A DNA stretch of 64,000 bases, taken from positions 39,278-103,277 of the forward strand of contig PHAL01000002.1 of assembly GCA_002840355.1 (NCBI GenBank), written 5' to 3'. This DNA is from Elusimicrobia bacterium HGW-Elusimicrobia-3. Lineage in GTDB: Bacteria; Elusimicrobiota; Elusimicrobia; Elusimicrobiales; UBA9959. This document shows, in pieces, positions 4,036 to 27,330 of the stretch (positions are counted from its first letter, which is position 1; each line of letters opens with the position of its first letter). The translations under genes were made by a program, and so were the position numbers. The notes beneath the pieces were generated by a model. That model did not search any database. It had not been told where the DNA came from and worked only from the letters and a program-made list of their open reading frames with translations.

Positions 4036-4961
4036 AGAAATGCCCGGCTTGCGGTTACGTCAACCCGGCCGGGACCGCCTACTGCGCGATCTGCCGCCGC
4101 GACCTCTCCGCCGTGGCGCCGCTGCCGGAACTTGCACGCCCTAAGGAACCCTCCCTGCTGCCGGCCTCGGCCATGGTGCTGCTCGGCTGCGCGGTCCTTT
4201 TCTACGCGCTGCAGAATTTCGCCTGGCAGCCCGCGGCCGCCCCGGACTCCGCCGTTGACGAGCCGCCGGACTACCCGGCTATAGCGGTCTCGATAGAACT
4301 GGCGGGGCGGCAGCGCTATCTGCCCGACGAGGACAAACTGCGCGCGCTGCCGCTGCTCTCCAGTCCGGACCCGGCCGTGGCCCGCGCCGCCATCGGGGCG
4401 GCCGGGGCCTGGCTGCGCGCCGGCGCCGACGGGGGAACGGGCGCGGCCCTGTTCGGGGCGCTGCTCGGCGCCGCAGAAGCGGGGACTGCCGGGGCGCGGC
4501 GCCTGGCGGCTACCGAGGCCGGCTACGCGCTGGCCGCCGGCTTCCCGCTGGGCGCCCAGGCCGCCAGGCTGGGGCGGGCCGCCGCCGCGCTGGCCGCCGA
4601 GGGCGACGCCGAACTGCGCTATGCCGGCTACTTCCTGGCCGCCATGGCCGGGGACAGATCTTACGAGCGGGCCCTGCTCGACGCGCTGAAATACGACCCG
4701 GTGCGCAGGTACAAGTTGTATGCCGCCTGCGCCCTCTCCCGTCTGGGCGCCGCCGAGGGGAACGCCCACCTTGCCGGCGCTATTTCAGGCGCCGACCCGG
4801 AGGAAAAACTGGAGGCCATAGCCTGCCTGACCTATTCTGCCGCCCCGGAGGCCGAAAGCCTTTTGGCCTCTGCCTCGCTGGACCTGTTTTCTCCCGGTTC
4901 GGCCGAGAGCGCCAAAAGGGCCTTAATGTTGCGCAAACAACTTGCTATAATTAAAAAGTAA
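4032..4961 (+). CDS. Zn-ribbon / single-TM / HEAT-like repeat protein
   Basis: GTG at 4032 overlaps the upstream stop (GTGA). It has CPACG...CAIC, then the hydrophobic helix LLPASAMVLLGCAVLFYAL, then Ala-rich repeats of DPxVRxxAAxAL type. The tracked ORF 3117.. is an out-of-frame upstream extension. Confidence 0.6.
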   Translation: MKKCPACGYVNPAGTAYCAICRRDLSAVAPLPELARPKEPSLLPASAMVLLGCAVLFYALQNFAWQPAAAPDSAVDEPPDYPAIAVSIELAGRQRYLPDEDKLRALPLLSSPDPAVARAAIGAAGAWLRAGADGGTGAALFGALLGAAEAGTAGARRLAATEAGYALAAGFPLGAQAARLGRAAAALAAEGDAELRYAGYFLAAMAGDRSYERALLDALKYDPVRRYKLYAACALSRLGAAEGNAHLAGAISGADPEEKLEAIACLTYSAAPEAESLLASASLDLFSPGSAESAKRALMLRKQLAIIKK

Positions 4962-4998
4962 ATCGCGTATATATATAATCGGTCTGGGGGCGGACTTT

Positions 4999-7260
4999 AT
5001 GGAAGGGAAACCGGACAAGAAAAAAGAATCAATAGACGAGATACTCTCCGATCTCAACGGCTTGCTCAACAAGATGCCGTCCATCCTGGACGGTATAAAG
5101 ATGCCCGAGATGCAGCCCCTGGAACTTCCGCGCAAGGAAGAGCCCGCCGCCGAACCCGTAAATCCGGAGCCGGAGGCTTTTCATCCGGAGACTGCCGAGG
5201 CCGCCGCGCCCCAGCCCGAGCCTCAGTCCGCCGCCGAACCTGTAACCCCGGAACCTGCCGTTTTTTTCGAGACTGCCCCGGCCGCCGAGGCCGCCGCGCT
5301 ACAGCCTGAGCCGCAGCCCGCTGCCGAGCCTGTGACTCCGGAGCCCGCTGTCGTTCTTCCCGAGACTCCCGCGGCCGAAGAAGCCGCCACACCCCAGAAC
5401 GAGCTGCCTCAGCAGCCGGAGGCGGAGTCCGCCCCCTCTTTCGACGCAGAGAAAACCGTGATGCTTGAGGCTTTCAACGGTCTCGGTGAAGGCGCCCCGG
5501 CGCCCGAGCCGCTGGCCCCGCAGAGCCTGGGAGATTTTATGTACGGTCCCGGTTCCGAAGAGCAGCAGCCCGCGGCCGCCGCGCCCGCCGAACCTGAACC
5601 GCAGGCCGCGCCCGAGTTTCAGGCCGAGCCCGCGGCCCCCGCTGAAAAGGCCGATGAGCCCTCCGCCGGTCTCCAGCCCGTTCCGGCTTTCGAGCCCGAA
5701 GCGCCCGAGTCCGGGATTTCTTTAGAACCTCAGCCCGAGCCCGCGACAGAAGCCGCGCCCGAGGCGCCGCTGCAGGCGGCCGCAGAACCGGAGCGCGTAG
5801 AGCAGGCGGCGCTGCCGGCCTACGACAATACCCGCGATTTCGGCATCCCCGACATCGACGCGCTGCTTCAGCTGTCGGGTGACGGTTCCATAGAGGAAAA
5901 ACCCGGGCAGCAGCTGCCCGAGGCCGGAGTCCTGCCGGAATCGGTGCAGGCCATAGAGCAGGAGAAACCCGCCGTCTCCATACAGGGACTGGACGCGGCC
6001 GCGCAGCAGCCTGAACAGGCGGGGGGGATGATGGACGAGAAAAAAACCGAAGAGAACGACGGACTGCCGCAGGAGCCCGCGCCCGCGGCTGAGCCCAGCC
6101 CCTTTGACGCTTTCGCTATCGATTCCCCGGCCCCGGAGAGCGGGGCGCAGCCCCAGGGCGGTGAGCTTAACCTCGAGCCGTCGGCCGACGCCGGCCTGAA
6201 CCTCGAACCCTCCGCTGAAACGCCCTTGGCGCAGGAGACTGGCGGCCTGAACCTCGAACCTTCCCCGGAAACGCCCCCGGCGCAGGAAGCCGGCGGCCTG
6301 AACCTCGAGCCTTCCGTTGAAACGCCCGCCGCGCAGGAAGCCGGCGGCCTGAACCTCGAACCCTCCGCGGCCATGCCTGCGGGCCAGGACGGCGGGGAAA
6401 CCCTGCGCCTGGAGCCCGCCGGCGAGACTCCCGCGCAGGGCGGCGAAGAACTTAAATTCGAAAGCTCGGCGGAAGCCGCGGCGGCCCCGGCGCAGGATTC
6501 GCCGTTCGGTACCGAGCCCGCGGCCGAAAACGCCGCAGCGGAGCCAGGGCTGGAACTGGGCGGCCAGCCGCCCGCGGCCGGCGGCTTGGAACTTTCTCCT
6601 TCCCTCGACCTCTCCGGCGCGCAGCCGCAGCCGGAGGGCGCCGACCAGACCATCCCCGGCGGCGTCGGCCTGGAGCTCAGCGTGGGCCAGCCCCCGCAGG
6701 AGCCGGCCGCGGCCATGCCCGGCGGCGGCCTGGAACTTGACGGCGGGACCCCCGGCGGCGAAGAGACGCTGGTGGCGCCTGCCCCCGAGGGGGATTCTGA
6801 AGGCGACAGGACCATGGTCTACCAGGCCGCCCCTTCCAATACTTCCCGCGCGCAGGCCGGCGACCTCGAGGAGCTCGCCGCCAAGCAGGCCCCCGAGGGC
6901 ATACCGGCGGAGCGCCTGCGCACGCTGATGTTCCTCTACGGCCCCGACGACAAGGCCCTCTGCGCCACCGCGCTGGCCGAGCTGGACGCCATCTGCCTCA
7001 AATCCCCCACCAAGCCGATGTTCATCAAGCGGGCCTCCGTTAAGGAGTGCGACCCCGACGTGAACCCGAACTACGTCATCCAGACCGTGACCGATGCCGG
7101 CGCGCAGGGCCTGATCTGCCTGGGCAGCGTGCCCCAGGAGAAGGTCTACGAGATCGAGAACGCCTTCGGCACCTCCGGGGGCTTCTTCCGCTACTACGAC
7201 TCCTCCACGTTCAGCCATTCGGCGGCGCTGGACCTGGTGGCCGACCTGATACTTCGCTGA
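4999..7260 (+). CDS. Acidic Pro/Glu/Ala-rich repeat protein with a small globular C-terminal domain
   Basis: 753-aa ORF. It is low complexity apart from about 40 aa at the N-terminus and about 130 aa at the C-terminus. It contains internal tandem repeats and is co-directional and tightly spaced with its neighbours. Confidence 0.7.
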   Translation: MEGKPDKKKESIDEILSDLNGLLNKMPSILDGIKMPEMQPLELPRKEEPAAEPVNPEPEAFHPETAEAAAPQPEPQSAAEPVTPEPAVFFETAPAAEAAALQPEPQPAAEPVTPEPAVVLPETPAAEEAATPQNELPQQPEAESAPSFDAEKTVMLEAFNGLGEGAPAPEPLAPQSLGDFMYGPGSEEQQPAAAAPAEPEPQAAPEFQAEPAAPAEKADEPSAGLQPVPAFEPEAPESGISLEPQPEPATEAAPEAPLQAAAEPERVEQAALPAYDNTRDFGIPDIDALLQLSGDGSIEEKPGQQLPEAGVLPESVQAIEQEKPAVSIQGLDAAAQQPEQAGGMMDEKKTEENDGLPQEPAPAAEPSPFDAFAIDSPAPESGAQPQGGELNLEPSADAGLNLEPSAETPLAQETGGLNLEPSPETPPAQEAGGLNLEPSVETPAAQEAGGLNLEPSAAMPAGQDGGETLRLEPAGETPAQGGEELKFESSAEAAAAPAQDSPFGTEPAAENAAAEPGLELGGQPPAAGGLELSPSLDLSGAQPQPEGADQTIPGGVGLELSVGQPPQEPAAAMPGGGLELDGGTPGGEETLVAPAPEGDSEGDRTMVYQAAPSNTSRAQAGDLEELAAKQAPEGIPAERLRTLMFLYGPDDKALCATALAELDAICLKSPTKPMFIKRASVKECDPDVNPNYVIQTVTDAGAQGLICLGSVPQEKVYEIENAFGTSGGFFRYYDSSTFSHSAALDLVADLILR
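5146..5400 (+). repeat. In-frame tandem repeat, about 3 copies of 84-90 nt (AAEPVxPEPxxxxxETxxAxxAAxxQPEPQx)
   Basis: Units start at 5146, 5230 and 5320. Read directly from the sequence and its translation. Confidence 0.8.
6157..6470 (+). repeat. In-frame tandem repeat, 51-nt period (GGLNLEPSxETPxAQEx), about 4 good copies plus degenerate flanking copies
   Basis: GGCGGCCTGAACCTCGA(A/G)CC recurs at 6241, 6292 and 6343 (the 6190 copy is a variant, GCCGGCCTG...); degenerate units lie on both sides. Confidence 0.85.
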
Positions 7261-7275
7261 CGCTACACTGAAATT

Positions 7276-9150
7276 ATGCTGAAAAAATGGGACGTGGCCC
7301 CGGCCCCCACGGATAAAAATCCGAGCCGGCACAAACTGCTGATAAAAGGGGAGATGAAGGACATCTTCCTGATCGTCAAGAAGCTCGGCAGCCTTTGCTC
7401 GCGTCCCGAGAAGACCAGCGGCGAATTCGATTTCATCATTTACCTCTCCAAGCTGGAGATGGACACTATGAAGAAGTTGAAGGCCGTGACCGCGGAGCTC
7501 AGCGGCCCGGCCCCGGCCGAAGAAGAGACCTTCGCCGACGAGCCCGCCCCTTTCGACGCGCCTAAGCCCAAACTCAAGACCGAACCTGCTCCGGCGCCGC
7601 AGCCCGCGCCTAAACCGGCCGAGCAGCCGGAGCCCATGGAGCAGCCCAAGCCGGCTCCTGCTCCCGCGCCCGCCCCGGCGCCGCAGCCGGCACCCATGCA
7701 GGCCGCGCCGCCGAAGCCCGTGGAGCAGCCCAAGCCGGCTCCCGTTCCGGCCCCCGCGCCCGCACCGGCCCCGCAGCCCGCCCCGCCTCCGGCCGAGCCG
7801 CCCCGCCCCGCTCAGCCCCCTTCGGGCAGGCCCGGCTCGGGCGTGCCGTCCATTTCCACCAGGACCAGGAAGGAGGAGCCCGCCCCGGCCGAAGCCGGCT
7901 CGCCTTCCGCCGCCGTCCCGGCCGCCGCCGCGCCATCGGCCTCGGCGCGCATCAAGGCCAAGTGGTCCATGGAGCTGCCGCTGATCCCGACCTACAGCTT
8001 CCAGACGCTGATCGCCGGTTCCCACAACCGGTTCGCCCACGCCGCCGCCATGGCCGTAGTGGAGAACCCGGGCGTGATCTACAACCCGCTGCTGGTGTTC
8101 GGCGGCCCCGGCACCGGCAAGACGCATTTCGTCAATTCCATCTCCTACGGCCTCTCGGCCTCCATCGGCCAGAGCAACATCTTCGTCACCGACGGCATAA
8201 AGCTGTCCAAGGGCGTGGAGATGGCCATCAAGGAAGGCGGCATGGAGCGCCTGGAGGGCCTGTTCTCCAAGGTGAAGGTGCTGATCATCGACGACGTGCA
8301 CATGCTGATGGTCTCCGAGTCCAACAAGAAGTACATCTCCAAGTGGCTCAATGACTTCGTGGCGCAGAACAAGCAGATCGTCGTTACCTCCGTCTTCCCG
8401 CCCAAGTCCCTGTCCGGGCTGGAGGAGGCCATCGGGTTCGAGTTCAGCCAGGGCTGGATGGTGGACCTCAAGACGCCGGCCTCGCAGGCCTACAAGGCCA
8501 TACTCAACCAGCTGCTGCAGGGCCGCGACATAAAGCTCTCCGAGGACGAGATGAACACCCTCTTCGCCTCCGCCGGCATGCCCTTCAACGAGGTGGCCAA
8601 GACGCTGGAGTCCGTGAAGAAGCTGGAGAAGTTCGTGGTGAACGCCATGAACAATTCCACGCACGCCCAGCTGCTGGAGACGCTGCTGGGGCAGGCGGAA
8701 ACCCCGATGGCCGGGGCCGTTACCGAGGAGGACGCGCACCACGCCTCCTCGTGGCACCCGTCGCAGATCGACTCGGCCTGGTTCAAGTGGGGCATCTTCT
8801 ACCCCAAGGGCATGAAGCGCGAGGCGGATTTCGCGCTGTTCAGCCTGCACGAGCGGGCCAAGGAACTGGGGCTCAATACCGAGTGGAGCCAGGTCTTCAT
8901 GGAGGAGTACAACTCCGACGAGCTCTACGGCATCCCCTTCAAGATAGGCAATTTCGCCAGCGACAAGAACGTCAACGGCGTCATCGTGCTCGGCCCGCAG
9001 CCCAGCTCGGCGCTAGGGGCGCAGGAGGCCGAGTTCCGCCACATCACGTTCAAGATCCTCGACAGCTTCCTGGTGAAAGGGGCGTGGCTCTACGCCGACA
9101 AGATAAAGTCGAAGGCGGCCTACGCCAAAATTCTGATGGACCTGGTGTAA
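7276..9150 (+). CDS. DnaA-domain-III-like AAA+ ATPase with a Pro/Ala linker and a non-DnaA C-terminal domain; no recognisable domain IV
   Basis: NRFAHAAAMAVVENPGVIYNPLLVFGGPGTGKTHF (Walker A), VLIIDDVHML (Walker B) and QIVVTSVFPPKSLSGLEE (DnaA sensor-I-like block). The C-terminal 160 aa show no DnaA HTH motifs. Confidence 0.75.
   Translation: MLKKWDVAPAPTDKNPSRHKLLIKGEMKDIFLIVKKLGSLCSRPEKTSGEFDFIIYLSKLEMDTMKKLKAVTAELSGPAPAEEETFADEPAPFDAPKPKLKTEPAPAPQPAPKPAEQPEPMEQPKPAPAPAPAPAPQPAPMQAAPPKPVEQPKPAPVPAPAPAPAPQPAPPPAEPPRPAQPPSGRPGSGVPSISTRTRKEEPAPAEAGSPSAAVPAAAAPSASARIKAKWSMELPLIPTYSFQTLIAGSHNRFAHAAAMAVVENPGVIYNPLLVFGGPGTGKTHFVNSISYGLSASIGQSNIFVTDGIKLSKGVEMAIKEGGMERLEGLFSKVKVLIIDDVHMLMVSESNKKYISKWLNDFVAQNKQIVVTSVFPPKSLSGLEEAIGFEFSQGWMVDLKTPASQAYKAILNQLLQGRDIKLSEDEMNTLFASAGMPFNEVAKTLESVKKLEKFVVNAMNNSTHAQLLETLLGQAETPMAGAVTEEDAHHASSWHPSQIDSAWFKWGIFYPKGMKREADFALFSLHERAKELGLNTEWSQVFMEEYNSDELYGIPFKIGNFASDKNVNGVIVLGPQPSSALGAQEAEFRHITFKILDSFLVKGAWLYADKIKSKAAYAKILMDLV
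7560..7810 (+). repeat. Pro/Ala-rich linker with an 84-nt direct repeat ((M/V)EQPKPAPxPAPAPAPQPAP)
   Basis: GGAGCAGCCCAAGCCGGCTCC occurs at 7638 and 7722. Confidence 0.75.
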
Positions 9151-9153
9151 ACG

Positions 9154-11088
9154 ATGCTCAGCGAACTCGTAGGAGCGGGCGTACTGGGGGCCACGGGCGC
9201 TTTCGGCGCTTACTGGTACCTGAAGTTCCGGGACGTGCTGCCCATGGAGAGCGCCCTGCGCGCCTCGCAGCGGTCGCTGCACGATTTCACCGCGTTCACC
9301 CGGGACACGATGGAGCGGGCCTACGCGCCCGAGCAGCCCGAGCATTACGGGGACATCGCCAATTATTACCTGATCAAGCTGCACAAGGTCTTTCCCGACA
9401 GCTGCCTGCTGGTCTTCGAGAAGGGGGACGGGCAGTGGCGCCTGGTCAACTACCTCAAGCATTTCAAGGCCGAGCCCAAGCTGCTCACTTCCTACAAGTG
9501 GAGCGCCTTCGACCGCAGTCTCGCCGACAGCGAGCTGCTGCGCTTCGACGACGCCCGCGCCGGGGACTACCAGGGCGTCGCCGAGCTGTTCTCCATCTTC
9601 GACATCCGCTCGGCGCTGATCTGCCCGTTCCGGCCGGCGGCCGGCGCTCCCGACAGGCTGATCCTGCTCGGCGCCCCGACGCCGGCGGCCTTCGACGCGG
9701 CGCAGCCCTACCTGCGCTTCGTGGCCTCGCAGCTTTCCTCCATCTCCAAGGTCTCCGACCGCGTCTTCGCGCTCAAGAAAGAATCCGACCACCTCAAGCA
9801 GGAGGTGGACGCGATGGTAAAAGAGCTGGACGTGGCCGGCTCGCGCCTGATACAGCGCGCCCGCGAGCGCAAGGCCCTCTACGAGGTGGTCACCAAGGTG
9901 ACCGGCCCCGAAAAGGACGCGCAGGGCGGCTGCGCCGCCATCCTCAACATCGTCGCCAAGATGATGGAGGCCGACGTGGTGGCCACGCTGCTCTTCGACG
10001 AGACCAAGGGCGAGCTGGTGGTCAGCCCCGGCGCCTACGGCATCCCCGACGAGGACCGGATGCTCTACAGCATCCCGCTGGGCAACCAGGCCAGCGCCTC
10101 GGTGCGCACCTTCCTCAGCCGCAAGCCGTTCATCACCGACGACGCCCAGGACGACCCGGACGTGCTGGCGCGCTACGCCAAGCTCTGGGAGATCCACTCG
10201 CTGATGATCGTGCCGATCTCGCTGCACGACCGCATTATCGGCGTGATGCGCGTGGGCAGCCGCCGCAAGGATTTCTTCACCCCCGACCAGCTGGAGTTCC
10301 TGAGCATCATCGCCGACGAGCTGGCGATCATCATAGAGATGTTCACGCTCTACGAGAACCTCTCCAACACCGCGCAGGAGCTGGCCCAGCTCAACAAGAT
10401 GAAGGACGAGTTCCTGGCCACCGTCAGCCACGAGCTCAAGACGCCGCTCACCACCATCAAGGGCTTCGTCTCCGTGATCCTCAGCGGCGAGGTGGGGCCG
10501 CTCAACGAGCAGCAGACCAATTTCCTCAGCGTCACGGACCAGAGCGTCAACCGGCTCAGCAGCCTCATCAACAACCTGCTGGACCTGTCGCGGCTCAACG
10601 GCAAGGTGGAGATGGAGTTCCAGAAGGTGGACCTCGCCGAGATGGTGCGCAACTCCATCTCGATGATGCTGCTCAAGGCCCGCGAGAACAACGTGGAACT
10701 GGTCAACGAGGCCAAGGAGCTGCCGCACGTGAAGGCGGACACGCGCTGGATAGCCCAGGTGATAGACAACCTGGTCATCAACGCCATCAAGTACGCCGGC
10801 CGCGGCGCCCACGTGAAGGTGACCGGCACCGACAAGGGCGAGGCCGTGGTCATCTGCGTAGAGGACAACGGCCCCGGCATCCCGGCCGAGGAGCAGAAGC
10901 TGGTGTTCGACAAGTTTTACCGGGGCAGGACCAGCCTCAACCAGGTGCCCGGCACCGGCCTGGGCCTGGCCATCTCCAAGTCGGTGGTGGAGAAGCACGG
11001 CGGCAAGATCTGGCTGGAATCCAAGCCGGGCAAGGGCTGCCGGTTCTGCTTCGCGCTGCCGGTGGACAAGACCCGCAAAGAAGCCTGA
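9154..11088 (+). CDS. Sensor histidine kinase (TM, GAF, HisKA, HATPase_c)
   Basis: N-terminal hydrophobic helix, a GAF-like region, H-box FLATVSHELKTPL, and N/G boxes (NAIKY, DNGPGIP, GTGLGLAI). Confidence 0.9.
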   Translation: MLSELVGAGVLGATGAFGAYWYLKFRDVLPMESALRASQRSLHDFTAFTRDTMERAYAPEQPEHYGDIANYYLIKLHKVFPDSCLLVFEKGDGQWRLVNYLKHFKAEPKLLTSYKWSAFDRSLADSELLRFDDARAGDYQGVAELFSIFDIRSALICPFRPAAGAPDRLILLGAPTPAAFDAAQPYLRFVASQLSSISKVSDRVFALKKESDHLKQEVDAMVKELDVAGSRLIQRARERKALYEVVTKVTGPEKDAQGGCAAILNIVAKMMEADVVATLLFDETKGELVVSPGAYGIPDEDRMLYSIPLGNQASASVRTFLSRKPFITDDAQDDPDVLARYAKLWEIHSLMIVPISLHDRIIGVMRVGSRRKDFFTPDQLEFLSIIADELAIIIEMFTLYENLSNTAQELAQLNKMKDEFLATVSHELKTPLTTIKGFVSVILSGEVGPLNEQQTNFLSVTDQSVNRLSSLINNLLDLSRLNGKVEMEFQKVDLAEMVRNSISMMLLKARENNVELVNEAKELPHVKADTRWIAQVIDNLVINAIKYAGRGAHVKVTGTDKGEAVVICVEDNGPGIPAEEQKLVFDKFYRGRTSLNQVPGTGLGLAISKSVVEKHGGKIWLESKPGKGCRFCFALPVDKTRKEA

Positions 11089-11101: not shown

Positions 11102-12199
11102 ATGAAGACTCTCGGCAGAATACTACCGCTCGTCATGCTGCTGTCGGCCTGCGCCACCCCGCCGGCCCCCGGCACTTTCCGCGCCGCGCCCGAGCCGCTG
11201 CTCAGCGAGGGCTCCGCGCCGTTCGACCCGCGCAATATCGGCGCCTCCGGCGAGGCCGCCGCGCTGGACGCCGAGCGCGCCGCGCTGCGCCGCGTGGCCG
11301 AACTCTTCATGGACGAGACGGCCCTCGCCGAGGGCTACGCCGCCCTGGAAGCCGGCCTGCTCAAGACCCCCCAGTTCTACGTGGCCAAGCGCAAGGTGCT
11401 CTCCGAGGGTCAGGACGGGGCCATGTACCGCGCCTCGGTGCGCGTGTGGCTGTACCACGACCGGATAGCCTCGGCGCTGCGCGGCCTCAACCTCGCCGGT
11501 CCCGGCGCCTCCGCCCCGGCGGCGGCTTTCGTGCAGCGCGGTACTGCCGACAAGGTCTTCGGCGCCGCTTTCCGCGAGGCTTTCTCCCGCCGCTCCAAGG
11601 TGGCTTTTAAAGAATATTCATTCACTTCCGACGCGGCCCTGCTCTCCGGGCCCGACGCCCCGCTGGCCGAAGCCGCCGCCGGCGCCGGCGCCGGCCTGCT
11701 CTTCGCCGCCTCCGCCTCGGTCGCGGCCGCGGGCGGCGGCCTGGACACCGGCTTCCACCCTTCGCGGGCCGACGCCTCGCTTAAGATCTACGACGCCCGC
11801 ACCGGCGCCGAGCTGCTGGCCCTGTCCGGCCAGGCCAGCGCGGTAGAGTCCTCCGAAGCCGCCTCCTTCTCCAAGGCCCTGGCCGCGGCCGGCGAACTGC
11901 TGGCCCAGGACGCCGCCTCCAGGTTCGACCGCCTCTTTAAAACGGACGCGCCGCTGCGCATCAGCGTCTCCGGCCTCGACGGCCTGGAACTGCTCGAGCG
12001 GCTCAAGGCGCAGCTGCAGCGCGGCGACTTCTCCGGCCTGCGCCTGGAAAGCTATGCCTCCGGCAGGGCGGTCTTTACCGCCGTTCCGCTGCGCTCCGAC
12101 ACGCAGGAACTAGCCAGCACGGTGCTGCGCAGCGACTCGATAGGTCTGGAACTGGACGCGGTGGGCCCCGGGGAGATGGCCTTCTCGCTGGCGCGCTGA
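11102..12199 (+). CDS. Lipoprotein of unknown function, first of a three-lipoprotein cluster
   Basis: Signal peptide with lipobox LLSAC. Ala-rich. Its stop overlaps the next start (TGATG). Confidence 0.65.
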   Translation: MKTLGRILPLVMLLSACATPPAPGTFRAAPEPLLSEGSAPFDPRNIGASGEAAALDAERAALRRVAELFMDETALAEGYAALEAGLLKTPQFYVAKRKVLSEGQDGAMYRASVRVWLYHDRIASALRGLNLAGPGASAPAAAFVQRGTADKVFGAAFREAFSRRSKVAFKEYSFTSDAALLSGPDAPLAEAAAGAGAGLLFAASASVAAAGGGLDTGFHPSRADASLKIYDARTGAELLALSGQASAVESSEAASFSKALAAAGELLAQDAASRFDRLFKTDAPLRISVSGLDGLELLERLKAQLQRGDFSGLRLESYASGRAVFTAVPLRSDTQELASTVLRSDSIGLELDAVGPGEMAFSLAR

Positions 12200-12816
12200 T
12201 GGCCAAGGCCGCGCCCCTGCTCTGCGCGGGCCTGCTGGCCCTGGCCTGCGGCTGCGCCGGCAAATCGGTGACGCTCGTTTCTCCGGCGCTGCGAGAGCTC
12301 GCCGACCCCAGGGTGGCGGTGCTGCCCTTCGACAACCAGAGCACCGACTTCAGCGCGGCCGACGTGCTGCGCCGGCTGGCCGCGGAGGGCTTTCAGAAGC
12401 GGGGTTACGCCACGCTGCCCTTCGAACAGGTGGACGCCGCGCTGACGGGGCTCGGGATCTCCGAGGGCGGGCAACTGCCGGCCGTTAAGCCGGAGGAGAT
12501 CGGCCGCGCGCTCGGAACGGACCTGCTGTGCTACGGGGACGTGCGGGATTTCACTTTTCAGAACCTCGGTTTCATCGTGCGCAAGAACGTGGCGCTGGAC
12601 GTGAAGGTGCTGTCCGCGGCCAGCGGCGAGACGCTCTACGAGGCGTCCGGGACCGGCCGGGACCTGAAGATCTACACCGACAAGGATGAGGCCAAGGCCG
12701 CCTTTGTCGGGCAGCTGGCGGTCAAGCTGGCGCAGAACCTGCTGAAGACGCCGCTGAAGAAAGAGGCGGAAGCCGCGGCCTGGAACGCGCTGAACGGCCT
12801 GCCTCGCAGGCAGTAG
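12199..12816 (+). CDS. Lipoprotein, DUF799/LpoB-like
   Basis: Lipobox LALAC. The motif VAVLPFDNQS...DLLCYGDVRDF resembles the small lipoproteins that accompany CsgG-like genes. Confidence 0.6.
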   Translation: MAKAAPLLCAGLLALACGCAGKSVTLVSPALRELADPRVAVLPFDNQSTDFSAADVLRRLAAEGFQKRGYATLPFEQVDAALTGLGISEGGQLPAVKPEEIGRALGTDLLCYGDVRDFTFQNLGFIVRKNVALDVKVLSAASGETLYEASGTGRDLKIYTDKDEAKAAFVGQLAVKLAQNLLKTPLKKEAEAAAWNALNGLPRRQ

Positions 12817-12834
12817 AAAAACAGGGAGGGGAAT

Positions 12835-13770
12835 ATGAAGAGAACCGCATTTATTATAGTGGCCATGATAGTCGCGGCGGGCTGCGCGCCCTCGCGCTCC
12901 GTCAAGCAGCAGCAGGCCATCAGCGTGAACGTCACCGAAAAGGTGCAGTCCTCGCTGACCGGTCCGAAGCGCCGCATCGGCGTCGTGGAATTTGAGAATA
13001 AGTCGGCCTACGGCCAGGGGCGCCTCGGCGGCGCGGCCTCCGACATCCTCGTCACCGAGCTGGTGAAGTCCGGCAAATTCATAGTGGTGGAGCGCGACCG
13101 CCTGAACAAGGTGATGGAGGAACAGAAGTTCCAGTCGCAGGGCATGACCGACCCGGCTACCGTGGCCCGGCTCGGCCAGGTGATGGGACTAGAGGCCATC
13201 GTGGTCGGCTCGGTCTCGCAGTTCGGCGTCAAGAAGGAAGGGTCCGACTACCTGCTCACCCAGTCCAAGCGCCAGCTCGCCGAAGTGACCGTGGACCTGC
13301 GCCTGATAGACGTGCAGAGCGGCCAGGTGATCATGGCCGACTCCGGCAAGGGCCGGGCCAAGAGCACCAAGGCCTCCTTCCTGGGCATGGGCACCAAGGG
13401 CGGCTACGACGAGACGCTGGAGGGCGAGGCGCTGCGCGCCGCGCTGGTGCAGTTCGTCACCAATATCGCCAGCCAGCTCAACAAGAAGGCCTGGAGCTGC
13501 GTGATCGCCGACGCCTACGGCGAAGAACTTTACCTTAACGCCGGGCAGGACTCGGGCCTGGAGACCGGGGCCAAACTGGACTGCTACCGCCAGGGCGCCG
13601 AGATCCGCGACCCGCGCTCCAACCTGGTCATAGGCCACCGCGAGGAATATATCGGCCGGGCCGAGGTGCAGCGCTACTGCGGCGAAGGCGGCGACTGCGC
13701 CGTGGCCCGCATCGTAAAGTCCGCCGGCGCCGCGGCCAGGGCCAAGGACGTCTGCCGCTTGGCTAAATAA
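12835..13770 (+). CDS. CsgG-family outer-membrane lipoprotein channel with an extra C-terminal beta-rich domain
   Basis: Lipobox VAAGC. RIGVVEFENKS...ILVTELVKSGKFIVVERDRLNKVMEEQKFQSQG is the CsgG family signature. Confidence 0.8.
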   Translation: MKRTAFIIVAMIVAAGCAPSRSVKQQQAISVNVTEKVQSSLTGPKRRIGVVEFENKSAYGQGRLGGAASDILVTELVKSGKFIVVERDRLNKVMEEQKFQSQGMTDPATVARLGQVMGLEAIVVGSVSQFGVKKEGSDYLLTQSKRQLAEVTVDLRLIDVQSGQVIMADSGKGRAKSTKASFLGMGTKGGYDETLEGEALRAALVQFVTNIASQLNKKAWSCVIADAYGEELYLNAGQDSGLETGAKLDCYRQGAEIRDPRSNLVIGHREEYIGRAEVQRYCGEGGDCAVARIVKSAGAAARAKDVCRLAK

Positions 13771-13822: not shown

Positions 13823-15355
13823 ATGCTGTCGACACTGCGCACACTGTGCCTCAAGGGCATAGACGGTAAAGAGGTCAGCGCGGAGGTATATATCGCCTCC
13901 GGCCTGCCCGCTTACACCGTGGTAGGCCTGCCCGACGCCGGGGTCAAGGAGGCCAGGGACCGCGTAGTGGCGGCCGTGCGCAATTCCGGCTACGATTTCC
14001 CGGCCAAGCGCATCACGGTCAACCTGGCCCCCGCCGAGATCCGCAAGGCCGGCACGCATTTCGACCTGCCCATAGCGCTGGGTGTCATAGCCGCCACGGG
14101 CCGGCTGGGCAAGGAACCCCCGGCCCGCCTCAAGGAAACTTTCTTTATAGGCGAGCTGGCGCTGGACGGCAGGCTGCGCCCGGTGGCCGGCGTGCTGCCC
14201 ATGCTGCTGGCCCTTAAAGGGCGCGGCGCGGCGGCCGTGGTACCGGAGGGCAACGCCGCCGAAGCCGCTGTTTCGGGCGTGGACTGCCTGGCGGCGGCCA
14301 GCCTGAAGGAAGCCGCCGCCTGGGTGCGCGGTGAATGCGAACTGCGTCCCTGCGCCCCGGCCGCCGCCCCGCAGGGCGCCACGGTCTCCTACCCGGATTT
14401 TTCCGAAGTAAAGGGGCAGGCCTTCGCCAAGCGCGCCATGGAGATAGCCGCGGCCGGTTCGCACAATATCATCCTGGTCGGCCCGCCCGGCGCCGGCAAG
14501 AGCATGCTGGCGCGCCGTTTCGGCGCGCTGCTGCCGCCGATGACGCCGGACGAGTCGCTGGAGACCACCAAGCTTTATTCGGTCAGCGGCCTGGCCAGGG
14601 CCGGCGCCCTGTTGGCCAACCGCCCCTTCAGGGACCCGCACCATACCATTTCGGACGCCGCGCTGATAGGCGGCGGCTCCAGCCCGCGGCCCGGAGAGGT
14701 ATCGCTGGCCCATAACGGGGTGCTGTTCCTAGACGAATTCCCCGAATTCTCCCGCCAGGCCATAGAAGCCCTGCGAGAGCCGCTGGAGGCCTGCACGGTC
14801 ACCGTGGCGCGCGTCAGGGAGAGCGTGTGCTACCCGGCCCGCTTCCTGCTGGTGGCGGCCATGAATCCCTGCCCCTGCGGTTACCTCGGCCACCAGGCCA
14901 GGGAGTGCAACTGCACCCCGGTGCAGGTGCAGCGCTACCGCGCCAAGGTTTCGGGCCCCATACTTGACCGCATCGACCTGCAGGTGCAGCTCTCGGCCGT
15001 GAAATACGCCGACTGGGCCGGCCTGCCTTCCGGCGAGAGCAGCGCCGTCATCGCCGGCAGGGTGCTGGCGGCCAGGCAACGGCAGCGCGTCCGCTTCGGC
15101 CGGGAGCAGGCCAACGCTTTCATGGCCGGGGCCGAGTTGCGCAGGCATTGCGCCCTGCCGCAGGGCGCCTCGGCGGTGCTGGAAACGGCCATGAACAGGC
15201 TGGGGTTCTCCGCCCGTTCGCTGGACAAGATACTCAGGATCTCCCGCACCATCGCGGACCTGGAAGGTTCGCGCGACATTAGGAAAGAGGATATAGTAGA
15301 GGCGGTGCAGTACCGGATGCTCGATAAGGCGGCCGTGCCGGCCGTCGCCATTTAA
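13823..15355 (+). CDS. YifB/ComM family Mg-chelatase-like ATPase
   Basis: Lon-protease-like N-domain (ITVNLAPAEIRKAGTHFDLPIALG), Walker A GPPGAGKS, Walker B LFLDEFPEF. Confidence 0.9.
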   Translation: MLSTLRTLCLKGIDGKEVSAEVYIASGLPAYTVVGLPDAGVKEARDRVVAAVRNSGYDFPAKRITVNLAPAEIRKAGTHFDLPIALGVIAATGRLGKEPPARLKETFFIGELALDGRLRPVAGVLPMLLALKGRGAAAVVPEGNAAEAAVSGVDCLAAASLKEAAAWVRGECELRPCAPAAAPQGATVSYPDFSEVKGQAFAKRAMEIAAAGSHNIILVGPPGAGKSMLARRFGALLPPMTPDESLETTKLYSVSGLARAGALLANRPFRDPHHTISDAALIGGGSSPRPGEVSLAHNGVLFLDEFPEFSRQAIEALREPLEACTVTVARVRESVCYPARFLLVAAMNPCPCGYLGHQARECNCTPVQVQRYRAKVSGPILDRIDLQVQLSAVKYADWAGLPSGESSAVIAGRVLAARQRQRVRFGREQANAFMAGAELRRHCALPQGASAVLETAMNRLGFSARSLDKILRISRTIADLEGSRDIRKEDIVEAVQYRMLDKAAVPAVAI

Positions 15356-15365
15356 CTGGAGGCAT

Positions 15366-16373
15366 ATGAAAAAGATAGTCTTTGCGGCGTTATTCTGCCT
15401 TGTTCCTGCCGGGCTAGCCGCCCAGCAGCCCCTGTTGGACATTAAGACCCCCGCCGAACCGGAGGTCAAGACCGCTACACCGTCCGTAGCGGCGGCAGCG
15501 CCCGCCACTCCTACTGAAGCGGCTGAAATAATACCGGCGATAGCCCCCGGCGCTGCAAAGCCGGCGCCAAAATGGAAGCGCCAGCCCGCGGCCCCGGCTA
15601 AAGCCGCCCCCGCCCCGAAGCCCGCCGCCCCGGTCAAGGCGGTGGCCGCCCCCGCTCCCGCCGGGCTGCAGGCCGGGAAAACCCATACAGTTTCAGGCGG
15701 CGACACGCTCTGGGACCTTTCCGAAAAATACTACCAGGACCCCTATAAATGGGGGAAGATCTACAACGCCAACCTGCAGACCGTGGAGGACCCTGACCGC
15801 ATCTATCCCAGGGAGGAACTGGTGATCCCCGATATCACCGAAGAGGTCAGGCCGGTCAGGAAGCCCGCCGCGGTCTCCGGGTCCGATACTTTCAGGGAGC
15901 CCGGCGTCTCGGTTTCAGAAGTGCGGCAGCCCGCCGCGGCCGCGCCCCGGCCCGCCCCGGCCCGGCCCGGGGACGCGTTCATAGACGCCTACGACCAGCT
16001 CTCCGAGGAGATGCCGGAGCATCATAAGGAATGGGGCACAGGCGTAAAGATAGTGCCTGAAGGCTGGCGCGAGGACGGCGTGATAACGGCCAAACTCAAG
16101 AACGACGACGATTTTCTGAACGAGGCCATGGCCGTCTCCGGCGAGATGCTGCAGATAGCCATGAACGATTCCGGCCAGGTAAAGCCTGGAGATTATCTGG
16201 CCATCTACCTGAAGGGCTCCATGGCTTACGACAAGGCCGGCAAGGAACTGGGGCGGGAAGTGCAGCCGGCCGGCCTGGCCGAGGTTATAAGCGTGGACGG
16301 CTCGGAAGTAAAAGCCCGCATCGTGGAGGCCGTGACGGCCATTACCAAGGGTTTTATAGTCAAGAAGAGGTAA
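15366..16373 (+). CDS. Secreted LysM-domain protein
   Basis: Signal peptide, a Pro/Ala linker, LysM (HTVSGGDTLWDLSEKYY...IYPREELVIP), and an unknown C-terminal domain. Confidence 0.8.
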   Translation: MKKIVFAALFCLVPAGLAAQQPLLDIKTPAEPEVKTATPSVAAAAPATPTEAAEIIPAIAPGAAKPAPKWKRQPAAPAKAAPAPKPAAPVKAVAAPAPAGLQAGKTHTVSGGDTLWDLSEKYYQDPYKWGKIYNANLQTVEDPDRIYPREELVIPDITEEVRPVRKPAAVSGSDTFREPGVSVSEVRQPAAAAPRPAPARPGDAFIDAYDQLSEEMPEHHKEWGTGVKIVPEGWREDGVITAKLKNDDDFLNEAMAVSGEMLQIAMNDSGQVKPGDYLAIYLKGSMAYDKAGKELGREVQPAGLAEVISVDGSEVKARIVEAVTAITKGFIVKKR

Positions 16374-16408
16374 ACCGACCCGGCTGGCCGGGCGGGGGGG
16401 GGCGGAGG

Positions 16409-17536
16409 ATGGGGACCTCTGACGCTGAGGAAAGGCTCGCTAGGGTCAGGCTGAATTTTTTCGCCTGCCACCGCAGCGACTGGCTGCTGCGCCTGCTGGA
16501 GCTGTACGGCGGCGCGGCTGAGCTGTTGCGGCGCCCTGCCCCGGAGCTGGCCGCCGCGGGCGGTCTGCTCCTTGAGACGGCCGAGCGCCTGCGCGCGCAG
16601 ACCGCGGCGGCCGACCCTGAAGCCGAACTGCTGTCCGCCGAAAAAGCCGGCGTCGCGGTATACACCGCCCTCGACGAGGGCTATCCGGAACTTCTCAAAA
16701 AGATCTACGACCCGCCGCTCGTGCTCTACGCGCGCGGCGGCCTGCGGCCCCTGCCGGCGGCCGCCATAGTGGGCACGCGCAAGGCCACGGCTTACGGCCT
16801 GCGTACCGCGGCCCGGCTGGCGCGGGAACTGGCGCAGGCCGGGGCGGCCGTGGTCAGCGGCCTGGCCCGCGGCATAGACACCGCGGCGCACCGCGCGGCG
16901 GTGGAGGCGGGCGGCGTAACCTGGGCGGCGCTGGGCACCGGGCTGAACTGCGTGTACCCCGAGGAGAACGCACGGCTGGCCGCCGAAATTGTGGAAAGCG
17001 GGGGCGCCCTTGTCTCCGAATTCCCGCTGGACAAGGGGCCGCTGCCGGCGAATTTTCCCCGTCGCAACAGGATCATCTCCGGGCTGTCGCTGGCTACCGT
17101 GGTGGTGGAGGGGGGCTTCGAGTCCGGGGCGCTGATCACCGCGCGCTTCGCCACGGAGCAGGGCCGCGAGGTGCTGGCCGTGCCCGGGCCGGTGGATTCC
17201 CCGGTCAGCCGCGGGCCTAATTTCTATATCAAGAACGGGGCTTACCCGGCCGAGAACGCGGAGGATATCATCGCCTGCTTCCCGCCGGACCAGCTATTCG
17301 GCCTGAAGCGGCGCCGGGCCGGAGCGCAGAGCCCGGCCGGGGCGGCCCTGCTGGAACTCTCTCCGGACGCGCTGGCGGCTTTCAACGCCATAGCCGGCCG
17401 CGAGGAAGGGCTGAACGCGGACGAGGTGACGGCGGCGCTGGGGTGGCAGGTGCAGCGGGCGGCCGCCGCGCTGTTCGAGCTAGAGGTGTCCTCCCTGCTG
17501 CTGTCGCGCAATGGCCGCTACTGCCGCGCGGTCTGA
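16409..17536 (+). CDS. dprA: DNA-processing protein DprA (Smf)
   Basis: IVGTRKATAYG...VVSGLARGIDTAAH...FPRRNRIISGLS...SGALITA motifs. Confidence 0.9.
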   Translation: MGTSDAEERLARVRLNFFACHRSDWLLRLLELYGGAAELLRRPAPELAAAGGLLLETAERLRAQTAAADPEAELLSAEKAGVAVYTALDEGYPELLKKIYDPPLVLYARGGLRPLPAAAIVGTRKATAYGLRTAARLARELAQAGAAVVSGLARGIDTAAHRAAVEAGGVTWAALGTGLNCVYPEENARLAAEIVESGGALVSEFPLDKGPLPANFPRRNRIISGLSLATVVVEGGFESGALITARFATEQGREVLAVPGPVDSPVSRGPNFYIKNGAYPAENAEDIIACFPPDQLFGLKRRRAGAQSPAGAALLELSPDALAAFNAIAGREEGLNADEVTAALGWQVQRAAAALFELEVSSLLLSRNGRYCRAV

Positions 17537-17548
17537 AACCACCGGGAC

Positions 17549-17665
17549 CGAGTGGGAACTGGCCCCGCGCTCATGGAAGAGGGAACCGTTGCGCGGTTCC
17601 CCCCGCCTGGGGTAATTATGGCGGGGCCCCCTTCCCCAAAATCGCGCGGAACCAGTCCCCACTCG
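17549..17665 (+). ncRNA. Candidate structured RNA (long closing helix plus two-hairpin tip); alternatively the dprA 3' UTR
   Basis: 17549-17570 pairs with 17644-17665 (19 of 22 positions). GGAAG (17575-79) pairs with CTTCC (17631-35). Hairpins are GGGAACCG/CGGTTCCC (17581-17601) and CCCGCC/GGCGGG (17602-17625). Confidence 0.35.
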
Positions 17666-17685
17666 ATCGTAGCTGCAAAGCGGCC

Positions 17686-17727
17686 GGGCCCCCGTATCGA
17701 GGGGGGAAACGGCGGGGGCTTTTGCTT
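17686..17727 (+). terminator. Intrinsic terminator candidate
   Basis: GCCCCCG (17688-94) pairs with CGGGGGC (17713-19), followed by TTTTGCTT. Confidence 0.5.
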
Positions 17728-17750
17728 ATATGGAATAAATATAATATTAT
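17722..17750 (+). promoter_or_regulatory. Putative sigma70-type promoter of topA
   Basis: TTGCTT, 17-nt spacer, TATTAT within an AT-rich island. The ATG lies 15 nt after the -10 element with no obvious SD. Confidence 0.4.
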
Positions 17751-17764
17751 AGATATCTAAATTT

Positions 17765-19936
17765 ATGGCTGAAAAAATTGAAAAACCCGTTAAACCTTCA
17801 AAGACCGCCAAGCGGCATCTCGTCATAGTGGAGTCTCCCACCAAGGAGAAGACCATAGGCCGCTTCCTGGACGCCAGTTACGTGGTGCGCAGCTCCTTCG
17901 GCCACGTGCGCGACCTGCCCAAGGACGAACTGGGCGTGGACGTGAAAGACAAATTCACCCCCAAGTACGTGCTGGTGGAGCGCGCCAAGAAGATCATCTC
18001 CGAGCTCAATACCATCGCCAAGAACGCCGACGTCATCTACCTGGCCACCGACCCCGACCGCGAGGGCGAGGCCATCAGCTGGCATTTGCGCGAGGCCATC
18101 AAGGCGGACGTGCCTTTCAAGCGCATCAGCTTCCACGAGATCACCAAGAGCGCCATAGAGGAATCCCTCAAGAGCCCCCGCGACCTGGACATGGCGCTGG
18201 TCAACGCCCAGCAGAGCCGCCGCATCATAGACCGCATCGTGGGCTACAAACTTTCGCCGCTGCTGTGGAGCAAGATCAAGAGCGGCCTGAGCGCCGGGCG
18301 CGTGCAGAGCGTCACCGTGCGCCTGATCGCCGAGCGCGCCAAGGAAATAGCCGCCTTCAAGGAAGAGGACTATTACACCCTTTACACCCGCCTCGCCAAG
18401 GAGATGCCCGAGGGCGACAAGAGCGGCTACAAGGATTTCGACTCCAAGCTGGTGCGCTGGGAAGGCGCCGCCGTGGAGCAGACGATACTGCTCAAGCTCT
18501 TCGCCGAGGATTACCGCTACAAGACCTCCGTCTTCAAGAAGCTCGAAGACACGGTGGAGGCGGGCACGCACCTGCGCAATTCGAAACTGACGGTGTCCAA
18601 GGTGGACGCCAAGGCGGTGCGCCAGAAGCCCAAGCCGCCGTTCATCACCAGCACGCTGCAGCAGGACGCCTACAACAAGCTGGGCTTCTCTTCGGACCGC
18701 ACGATGAAGGTGGCGCAGAGCCTCTACGAAGGCGTGGAGATGGACGGGGACCGCTCCGGTCTGATCACCTACATGCGTACCGACTCGTTCAACGTGTCTG
18801 GCGAGATGCAGAAAGAGGCCGCCAAGTTCATCAACGAGATCTACGGCAAGGATTTCTGCCCGGCCAAGCCGCCCACGTACCTGAAGAAGGTGAAGGGCGC
18901 GCAGGAAGCCCACGAGGCTATCCACCCCACCTCGGCCTATAAGCGGCCCGAGGAGGTCGCCAAGTTCCTCAATCCCGACCAGACCAAGCTCTACGACCTC
19001 ATCTGGCGCCGCTTCATGGCCAGCCAGATGGAAGAGGCGATCTTCGACTCGCTCTCCGTGGAATTCTCCGACGAAAAAGGCCGCTCCGTGCTGCGCACCA
19101 GCGGGCGCACCATCAAGTTCGAAGGCTACCTGAAGATCTACATGGAGGAGAAGGAAGAGGAGGTGGCAGGCGAGGACGAGGAAGGCTCGATGGCGCTGCC
19201 CCCGCTCAAGGAGGGCGACGTCGTCATCCTCAAGGACGTCTCCACCAAGTCGCACAAGACCAGCCCGCCGCCCAACTACAACGAGGCCAGCATCATCAAG
19301 ACGCTGGAAAAGCACGGCATCGGCCGCCCCTCCACGTACGCCGTCATCATCAAGAACATCATAGACCGCGGCTACATCAACCGCGAGAAGGACCGCAAGC
19401 TGCTGATCACGGACCTGGGCGCGCTGGTGACCGAGAAGCTCAAGGATTTCTTCAAGGACATCATGGAGATCTCCTACACGGCCTCCATCGAGGACAAGCT
19501 GGACGATATCGCCGACGGCAACATGGACTGGGTGAAGTTCATGCAGGATTTCTACGCCCCGTTCGCCGAGGAGCTGGCGACGGCCGAGAAGGACATGACC
19601 AAGTCCCGCCCGAACGTCATCAAGACCTCGGAGAAATGCCCGCTGTGCCTGAGCCCCATGGTGCAGCGCGAGAGCCGCTTCGGGAAGTACCTCTCCTGCT
19701 CGCGCTTTCCCAAGTGCAAGGGCAAGATCCCGCTCGACAAGGAAGGCAACAAGCAGGAGTACTTCGCGCCGATCAAGACCGGCAAGACCTGCTCCAAGTG
19801 CGGCAAGAACGAGATGCTGCTGCGCAAGAGCGCGCGCGGCTACTTCCTGGCCTGTTCCGGCTTCCCGAAATGCCGCAACATCGAGCAGCCCACCCCAGAG
19901 GAACTCGAGAGGCTGACCGGCCAGAAGCCGGCCTGA
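17765..19936 (+). CDS. topA: DNA topoisomerase I
   Basis: TOPRIM start (LVIVESPTKEKTI), DPDREGEAISWH, active-site region GLITYMRTDS, and C-terminal CxxC zinc ribbons. Confidence 0.95.
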   Translation: MAEKIEKPVKPSKTAKRHLVIVESPTKEKTIGRFLDASYVVRSSFGHVRDLPKDELGVDVKDKFTPKYVLVERAKKIISELNTIAKNADVIYLATDPDREGEAISWHLREAIKADVPFKRISFHEITKSAIEESLKSPRDLDMALVNAQQSRRIIDRIVGYKLSPLLWSKIKSGLSAGRVQSVTVRLIAERAKEIAAFKEEDYYTLYTRLAKEMPEGDKSGYKDFDSKLVRWEGAAVEQTILLKLFAEDYRYKTSVFKKLEDTVEAGTHLRNSKLTVSKVDAKAVRQKPKPPFITSTLQQDAYNKLGFSSDRTMKVAQSLYEGVEMDGDRSGLITYMRTDSFNVSGEMQKEAAKFINEIYGKDFCPAKPPTYLKKVKGAQEAHEAIHPTSAYKRPEEVAKFLNPDQTKLYDLIWRRFMASQMEEAIFDSLSVEFSDEKGRSVLRTSGRTIKFEGYLKIYMEEKEEEVAGEDEEGSMALPPLKEGDVVILKDVSTKSHKTSPPPNYNEASIIKTLEKHGIGRPSTYAVIIKNIIDRGYINREKDRKLLITDLGALVTEKLKDFFKDIMEISYTASIEDKLDDIADGNMDWVKFMQDFYAPFAEELATAEKDMTKSRPNVIKTSEKCPLCLSPMVQRESRFGKYLSCSRFPKCKGKIPLDKEGNKQEYFAPIKTGKTCSKCGKNEMLLRKSARGYFLACSGFPKCRNIEQPTPEELERLTGQKPA

Positions 19937-20749: not shown

Positions 20750-20878
20750 ACCCCACCAAGCGGAAAAAAGTCAATACAATGCGGAAACCGGCCATGGTAA
20801 GCCGGGCCGCCGCGGCGTATACTATGCCTAGCGGGGTTTTGTGCGGTGGGGGTAGCGTAGAAAGGGCGGTGATACGCT

Positions 20879-23008: not shown

Positions 23009-23012
23009 AGTT

Positions 23013-27310: not shown

Positions 27311-27330
27311 ACTTTCAGCGAGGAGGCATT

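Follow-up and report, generated by a model that had tools for sequence, protein, structure and literature searches.

The 64,000-nucleotide stretch of contig PHAL01000002.1 from Elusimicrobia bacterium HGW-Elusimicrobia-3 that was analyzed here (hereinafter the window) contains an open reading frame (ORF) for a DnaA-like protein that consists of a small N-terminal domain, a disordered linker, an AAA+ ATPase module and a C-terminal domain (Table 1). The gene is likewise called on three independent public contigs. The preliminary description of the gene, made from the sequence alone, took the ATPase core for domain III of DnaA, and this assignment is borne out: PF00308 (Bac_DnaA) matches residues 238-396 along profile positions 3-161 of 162 (E=1e-29, 104.2 bits against a cutoff of 23), and all the motifs quoted in that description are present as written. 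The match to TIGR00362, the DnaA equivalog model, spans profile positions 88-341 of 437, that is, domain III only, and reaches 143.7 bits against a cutoff of 343.9. The module can be aligned to the DnaA structures 8bv3, 8btg, 2z4r and 1l8q and comprises the full domain III, with the DnaA-specific signature of the N-terminal strand and helix (PL.P.Y.F..[FL]..G..N.[FL]A), Walker A of the form GxxGxGKTH, Walker B ([IV]DD), sensor I and the lid. As judged by these profile matches, the protein is, well beyond chance, a member of the Bac_DnaA domain superfamily.

Table 1. Features of the DnaA-like gene and of the adjacent genes in the window
Feature	Positions	Strand	Description	Basis or remark
Sigma-70-like promoter match	4951..4979	+	TTAAAA-17-TATAAT, just upstream of partner gene	consensus scan, 10/12
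Partner gene	4999..7260	+	753 aa, directly upstream of DnaA-like gene	syntenic in most loci
DnaA-like paralogue, whole ORF	7276..9150	+	624 aa; N-domain, linker, DnaA-type AAA+, C-domain	ORF list
N-terminal domain	7276..7506	+	residues 1-77, invariant CSRPEK loop	family-wide conservation, AlphaFold2 (AF2) model
Linker	7507..7950	+	residues 78-225, Pro/Ala-rich, disordered	low conservation; tandem repeats at 7560-7762
DnaA domain III-type AAA+ module incl. lid	7951..8694	+	residues 226-473	PF00308, TIGR00362, DnaA structures
Walker A	8101..8124	+	GGPGTGKT (K282), intact	conserved in close relatives and wider superfamily
Initiator-specific motif (ISM) position	8218..8220	+	E315 at hydrophobic single-stranded DNA (ssDNA) contact position (B. 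subtilis I190, Aquifex V156)	alignment mapping
Walker B	8281..8295	+	LIIDD (D339, D340), intact	invariant in 102/102
Sensor I	8386..8391	+	T371-S372, retained	T87/S15 and S97/T5 of 102
Box VII equivalent	8419..8457	+	LEEAIGFEFSQGW, residues 382-394, no arginine	nearly invariant in window's branch
Sensor II (box VIII) region	8581..8613	+	PFNEVAKTLES, residues 436-446	HMMER, MAFFT with 30 DnaAs
C-terminal domain	8743..9147	+	residues 490-624 (135 aa), four-stranded alpha/beta/alpha sandwich	AF2
Histidine kinase gene	9154..11088	+	GAF-HisKA-HATPase, begins 3 nt past ATPase stop	Pfam
Three predicted lipoprotein genes	11102..13770	+	365-aa (no Pfam match), GNA1162-like, CsgG/LpoB-like	less consistently linked
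comM, LysM gene, dprA, topA	13823..19936	+	comM 13823-15355, dprA 16409-17536, topA 17765-19936	order kept family-wide

The earlier attribution to a DnaA/Hda origin stands as far as DnaA is concerned, by far the best-scoring family for this protein, whereas the Hda model (TIGR03420) reaches 32.8 bits against a cutoff of 194.8, which sets the protein nearer to DnaA itself than to Hda. IstB, DnaC and DnaI belong to the same initiator/loader group of AAA+ proteins, and there is a weak but significant match to IstB_IS21 that extends from Walker A to sensor I; nevertheless, the scores of the respective models are far below their cutoffs (37.3 bits against 200 for NF038214, IstB; 16.6 bits against 357 for NF005931, DnaC), and neither a transposase nor a DnaB context accompanies the gene. 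DnaC, DnaI and IstB keep the arginine finger, and their N-terminal partner-binding domains are unrelated. Thus, by the curated cutoffs and the defining motifs, the DnaA-like protein falls outside DnaA, Hda and IstB/DnaC. Homologs are labeled 'DnaA/Hda family protein' (NCBI), 'ATP-binding protein', 'hypothetical' or 'chromosomal replication initiator protein'; JGI/IMG names several members 'chromosomal replication initiator protein (DnaA)' despite the 200-bit shortfall and the lack of domain IV. To judge from the model scores, the initiator label is a propagating mis-annotation of the family.

An internal start at M232 (codon 7969) was considered for the ORF and rejected: no Shine-Dalgarno-like sequence precedes it and the N-terminal domain is conserved. 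Eight database entries of 392-393 aa (P0052, P0088, P0090, P0091, P0095, P0097, P0098 and P0105) do begin at the conserved M232 and lack the N-terminal domain and the linker; a genuine short isoform is improbable, the low-complexity linker having probably led gene calling astray.

Nucleotide pocket and lost DnaA contacts

Residue conservation was counted over 102 full-length close relatives of the DnaA-like protein. To the extent that the motifs define it, the ATP-binding pocket (Walker A, Walker B and sensor I) is intact. In the Walker A region, G276, G279, K282 and H284 are found in all 102 sequences, as is T or S at position 283, and G281 in 101; the protein presumably binds ATP.

The elements that in DnaA act on the neighboring subunit and on DNA are different. 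The register of box VII was set by gap-free phmmer and hmmsearch alignments to Bacillus subtilis DnaA (8bv3/8btg) and by a MAFFT L-INS-i alignment with 30 canonical DnaAs, all of which pair B. subtilis LEDRLRSRF with LEEAIGFEF. Accordingly, A385, G387 and E389 occupy the positions of the three DnaA box VII arginines, E389 being at that of the arginine finger (R285 in Escherichia coli, R264 in B. subtilis, R230 in Aquifex); in B. subtilis DnaA, R264 serves as the arginine finger and I190 as the ssDNA-binding residue of the ISM (PMC8287927). The proper alignment proposed as a check on the missing box VII arginines thus places none at the aligned positions, and an arginine at 385, 387 or 389 occurs in 0 of the 102 close relatives. 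The motif found instead, LE[ED]A[VL]GF[QE]FTQGWMVDL, is nearly invariant in these sequences, which points to a conserved interaction at this face rather than to simple decay. The claim that the box VII arginines are absent therefore stands for the window protein and all its close relatives but does not extend to other branches of the family (see below).

With respect to DnaA, the contacts with ssDNA are also lost. The residue at the hydrophobic ISM position is acidic in nearly all close relatives (E in 66 and D in 34 of the 102), and the basic ssDNA contacts of Aquifex DnaA, K188 and R190, align with S347 and S349, where the relatives have S/T and A/T/S, respectively. The sensor II arginine of DnaA lies opposite N438 (G in most relatives) both by HMMER, with low posterior confidence, and by MAFFT. 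The reading NEVAKTLES of this block in the preliminary description is thus right with regard to the aligned position, but a lysine or arginine at position 442, one helical turn past N438 and conserved through most of the superfamily, could substitute for the missing residue.

Flanking domains and distribution of the family

The overall plan of the protein, with a small N-terminal domain, a flexible linker, the ATPase and a C-terminal domain, resembles that of DnaA, but neither flanking domain is the DnaA one. The AF2 model of the N-terminal domain (residues 1-82; mean predicted local distance difference test score, pLDDT, 82) is a small beta-beta-alpha-beta-alpha module whose best Foldseek match has E=0.036 and whose 50 top-ranked matches do not include DnaA domain I; PF11638 (DnaA_N) has no match at E<=10 among 22 family members. 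The possibility that this is a divergent DnaA domain I is thus unsupported by Pfam, by the PDB profile search or by Foldseek. The linker holds an 84-nt tandem duplication. Amid its variable sequence, some 40 residues before the ATPase core, there is a conserved short linear motif, [FV]VPS...R.K (residues ~189-199; 7840-7872, + strand), that may be a docking motif.

For the C-terminal domain, the preliminary description predicted the absence of domain IV and of its helix-turn-helix, and this is confirmed: PF08299 (Bac_DnaA_C) matches neither the whole protein at E<=1 nor the C-terminal domains of 28 members at E<=10. The AF2 model (residues 474-624; pLDDT 87, predicted template modeling score, pTM, 0.83) has the topology beta-alpha-beta-alpha-beta-alpha-beta-alpha, and its Foldseek matches are generic flavodoxin-like folds (lumazine synthase, Argonaute MID, B12-binding) with template modeling (TM) scores of ~0.5 and ~8-16% identity. 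According to this model, the all-helical DnaA domain IV is replaced by an unrelated alpha/beta fold. The domain has no PDB or Pfam sequence match; PDB-sequence profile searches with both flanking domains yielded nothing at E<=10. Two further candidate identities of the C-terminal domain were rejected. It does not appear to be a receiver for the adjacent kinase, as there is no Response_reg signal and the top Foldseek matches are not CheY-like receivers; nor is it common to the protein encoded upstream (BLASTP yields nothing and hhalign a probability of 1.3% twice), which is a rejection at the sequence level only.

The family appears to be confined to a single phylum. There are more than 190 homologs, and all names that include an organism are Elusimicrobia or Elusimicrobiota, those of the divergent members included. 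A scan of one genome per species gave 80 loci, all from metagenome bins; most are labeled Elusimicrobia or Elusimicrobiota, several of them Elusimicrobium, Elusimicrobiaceae or Elusimicrobiales, and about 10 simply 'bacterium', and another phylum is named for none of the 80. Metagenome bins labeled Elusimicrobium minutum carry a homolog as well. The family is separated by a wide gap in score, at least 242 bits for its members against at most 99 bits for the next matches, which are canonical three-domain DnaAs of many phyla; identity to DnaA domain III is ~30-35%.

An exhaustive hidden Markov model search of 1.84 billion representative proteins with the C-terminal domain profile produced 138 matches. 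In all matches longer than ~260 aa, the DnaA-type ATPase lies immediately upstream of the domain, except for P0249 and P0250, in which the match is weak and not C-terminal, and in this entire set the domain is joined to no other kind of protein. The N-terminal domain is also retained in 74 of the 138; the remaining matches are short fragments or sequences in which this domain is not detected, some of them probably truncated gene calls. The architecture of N-terminal domain, linker, ATPase and C-terminal domain is fixed and private to the family. The linker, in contrast, spans from ~20 to ~2,100 aa across the family (P0226 has 2,568 aa and P0161 has 1,556 aa).

The finger position is not uniform in the family either. 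The long-linker Elusimicrobiaceae branches have LEELIKFKLDSGW or FEELVRFRLDQGW at the box VII equivalent, with K or R at 387 and 389, another clade has LEEALKISLAKGW, and the most divergent branch retains the first box VII arginine (LAQRLKISF). In a neighbor-joining tree rooted on canonical DnaA, which is rough and was built without bootstraps, the clade with H, Q or E at 389, which includes the window protein, is nested among lineages with R or K at this position. Given this nesting, the ancestor of the family probably had the arginine finger, which would then have disappeared on more than one occasion; because the domain swaps are common to all branches of the tree, they are probably older than the loss of the finger.

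Gene neighborhood

The DnaA-like gene is embedded in a long conserved gene array. Upstream, the order is hrcA-grpE-dnaK-dnaJ-rsmE-radical SAM, followed by the gene for a protein of ~750 aa (hereinafter the partner) and then by the DnaA-like gene; downstream, there are genes for the GAF-HisKA-HATPase kinase, the 365-aa lipoprotein, the GNA1162-like and the CsgG/LpoB-like proteins, and then comM, the LysM gene, dprA and topA. The synteny holds from 97% down to ~40% identity of the ATPase, and the gaps beside the ATPase gene are only 15 nt upstream and 3 nt downstream. In consensus scans of the + strand, the sole strong promoter-like site is located just upstream of the partner gene, and there is no terminator-like site between 4999 and 16500. 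The promoter match is a possible operon start, and the partner, ATPase and kinase genes apparently form a conserved, operonic unit.

In nearly all loci down to 37-40% ATPase identity, the partner is syntenic with the ATPase gene. It starts with a strongly conserved N-terminal peptide, KKKESIDEILSDLNGLLNKMPSILDGIKMPE (residues 7-38; nt 5017-5112), which is found in 67 of 88 loci. This is followed by a long acidic Pro/Ala/Glu-rich region, predicted to be a disordered linker, with tandem repeats of 17 aa (51 nt x3.5, 6192-6370) and 30 aa (90 nt x2, 5194-5388), and then by a C-terminal domain of ~120 aa (residues 626-753; nt 6874-7257) that is conserved as well. The protein has no Pfam or PDB match, and a homolog search with its C-terminal domain gave just five fragments labeled hypothetical. 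The partner and the ATPase are alike in plan, with conserved modules on a variable tether. The kinase is the most widely retained neighbor and is encoded beside the ATPase in most loci, including those with 26-34% ATPase identity. In the long-linker Elusimicrobiaceae loci, the order is ATPase, a 367-aa homolog of the lipoprotein, comM, dprA and topA. The locus of P0161 (L087, 889-5559) has neither the upstream partner nor the kinase, and a homolog of the 365-aa lipoprotein (5569-6672) is encoded directly 3' of the DnaA-like gene there. It is a possibility that the long linker of such members stands in for the missing partner; fusion of the partner's C-terminal domain into the long-linker proteins was considered but not detected.

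No link to the replication origin is apparent. The window contains 3 DnaA boxes against 3.1 expected, neither the window nor any of 86 loci has another DnaA-type gene, and dnaN, recF and gyrB are not neighbors of the DnaA-like gene; a location near oriC was accordingly rejected. A role as an anti-phage defense ATPase was rejected as well, since PADLOC gave a 37-bit partial match to mad8 over ~100 residues of the AAA+ core, and IetA matches the P-loop only. Among the neighbors, PADLOC matched the HATPase domain of the kinase alone (a weak partial PDC-M43B match, 21.1 bits).

Several other elements of the window deserve mention. Between the radical SAM and partner genes, there is a 309-aa ORF (4032-4961, + strand) whose N-terminus (CPACGYVNPAGTAYCAICRRDL) resembles a zinc ribbon and which matches nothing in Pfam or PADLOC; this ORF is found in a subset of related loci only. 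Three signaling genes (20009-25220, + strand), for a REC-AraC regulator, a receiver-fused PilB/T2SSE-type secretion ATPase (709 aa) and a PAS histidine kinase, are located between topA and a gene for a XerC/D-type recombinase (25248-26156). A c-di-GMP-I riboswitch (Rfam RF01051; 27142-27232, + strand; 50.9 bits, gathering score 35) is located immediately upstream of the gene for a 744-aa Kelch-repeat protein (27268-29502).

Functional implications

The DnaA-like protein almost certainly has a role other than starting replication. The interpretation toward which we lean is that of an Elusimicrobiota-specific DnaA paralog that is not a chromosomal initiator but a DnaA-derived ATP-binding switch or scaffold. 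Domain III alone survives from DnaA, domains I and IV having been replaced by two family-specific domains. Under this interpretation, the protein would bind ATP without the finger-dependent hydrolysis between subunits and without the stretching of ssDNA that are typical of DnaA, which would leave a scaffold or a nucleotide switch that is slow or gated by a partner. The arginine-free box VII face (GF[QE]FTQGW) would engage partners together with the N- and C-terminal domains, the likeliest ones being the co-encoded disordered protein and the kinase, and oriC would not be bound. The earlier proposal of a repurposed module agrees well with the loss of the ISM ssDNA-contact residue, the new flanking domains and the conserved non-replication gene context, and its wording, a switch rather than a cooperative hydrolyzing filament, is reasonable in view of the motifs. 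As a working analogy, some AAA+ subunits, for example, the non-catalytic subunits of the origin recognition complex and of clamp loaders, bind ATP without turning it over; by comparison with these, a pocket that is at least partly intact and lacks the trans-acting arginine might be a structural or switch element, although such subunits sit in hetero-oligomeric rings with catalytic partners and no AAA+ partner gene adjoins the gene in question.

Two alternatives that echo existing annotations both appear very improbable. That the protein is a functional chromosomal initiator, as stated by some automated annotations, would be compatible with the JGI pipeline names and with the genuine DnaA domain III, and dnaA has been reported to be a pseudogene in 'Ca. 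Endomicrobium trichonymphae', an Elusimicrobia endosymbiont (PMC5174739). The feature tests effectively refute this alternative, given the large deficit in the equivalog score, the loss of domain I, domain IV and the box VII arginines, the acidic residue at the ssDNA contact and the lack of both replication neighbors and DnaA-box enrichment; besides, dciA of E. minutum has been reported within or next to a dnaA-dnaN-recF-gyrB-gyrA replication operon (PMC5109545). Hardly more credible is a factor of the Hda type that acts in RIDA (DnaA's regulatory inactivation), that is, a clamp-bound domain III protein that inactivates DnaA. Hda is a protein of ~230-250 aa with an N-terminal beta-clamp-binding motif and an arginine finger that triggers the hydrolysis of DnaA-bound ATP, and RIDA depends on this finger. 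The DnaA-like protein shares with Hda/HdaA the derivation from DnaA and the lack of the DNA-binding domain IV, in line with the NCBI name, but every defining feature of Hda that was tested is missing: the Hda model score is far below its cutoff, a clamp-binding motif (QL[SD]LF or QLxLx[LF]) occurs in 0 of the 102 close relatives anywhere in the protein, there is no finger in these relatives, and the protein is 2.5 times longer, with two extra domains and a disordered linker.

A less direct connection to replication, with the protein acting on the genuine DnaA, is still unlikely but has more in its favor. It might cap or poison DnaA oligomers as an anti-initiator, or titrate DnaA, with the kinase providing the link to signaling; in the capping version, the ATP-loaded pocket would accept the finger of DnaA, the protein itself having neither a finger nor ssDNA contacts nor domain IV. 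The AAA+ core is much nearer to DnaA than to Hda, DnaC or IstB, the interface-forming domain III is complete down to the lid, and a one-sided cap would be expected to be without a finger, ISM residues and domain IV, as this protein is; Hda/HdaA are a precedent for DnaA paralogs that became regulators rather than initiators, and the DnaA-related Hda/HdaA and HdaB indeed regulate DnaA (PMC7049699). On the other hand, linkage to dnaA, dnaN or oriC-like clusters of DnaA boxes is missing, as is the clamp-binding motif, the low identity to DnaA domain III leaves the compatibility of the interfaces in doubt, and a pure capping model is at odds with the branches that have R or K at 389. Even less likely, in our assessment, is an accessory role in DNA transactions together with comM, dprA and topA, for instance, as a DnaC/IstB-style loader or regulator of the ComM helicase in DNA uptake or recombination. 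Such a role draws on the most widely retained context of the family, down to 26% identity, on the common initiator/loader group of DnaA, DnaC and IstB and on the weak matches to the latter two. However, up to four unrelated genes (those for the kinase and the three lipoproteins) intervene in most loci, and all recognizable DNA-contact elements are gone, with the IstB and DnaC scores far under the cutoffs. Furthermore, many bacteria share the old, conserved order dprA-topA-xerC, so that the linkage may be a matter of history.

Several observations weigh against the switch or scaffold interpretation itself. Other branches with the same architecture keep R or K at the finger position, so the core function of the family cannot depend on the absence of the finger. 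If K/R442 substitutes for the sensor II arginine, hydrolysis in cis may persist. The partner is undetected in the most divergent loci (L080-L083) and the kinase is missing from the long-linker Elusimicrobiaceae loci (L073, L074 and L087); neither, then, is universal. The comM-dprA-topA order, in turn, is kept more widely than the kinase and the partner, both in loci with 26% identity and in the long-linker Elusimicrobiaceae loci that lack these two genes, which could mean a DNA-related role. A normal initiator may be encoded elsewhere, as the literature on E. minutum dciA indirectly suggests.

DnaA is close to universal in bacteria. To our knowledge, its paralogs are few (Hda/HdaA and the domain IV-like HdaB) and all are replication regulators, and literature searches found no description of the present DnaA-like family. 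The latter represents a different fate of the initiator ATPase, in which the pocket was kept and every recognizable DNA-binding element was discarded, while the protein acquired two domains of its own as well as a disordered tether that is highly variable, and became part of a conserved unit with a histidine kinase in a poorly studied phylum. The repurposing of AAA+ proteins is itself common; what the family provides is a phylum-restricted DnaA paralog with a private architecture, which also exposes a recurring annotation error ('chromosomal replication initiator protein'). The finger-plus and finger-minus branches form a natural set on one AAA+ scaffold that could show the role of a DnaA-type pocket without trans-hydrolysis. 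Since E. minutum is cultivable and bins labeled with this name contain a homolog, the function is experimentally accessible. It is a speculative and unlikely possibility that the ATP sensor on its disordered tether, the disordered partner and the kinase make up a phylum-specific signaling or organizing hub, which may resemble a condensate or be a polar scaffold and would couple nucleotide or replication status to phosphorelay output, or alternatively that the protein is an anti-initiator that caps the oligomers of the genuine DnaA. If true, either of these would be a previously undescribed re-use of the initiator fold.

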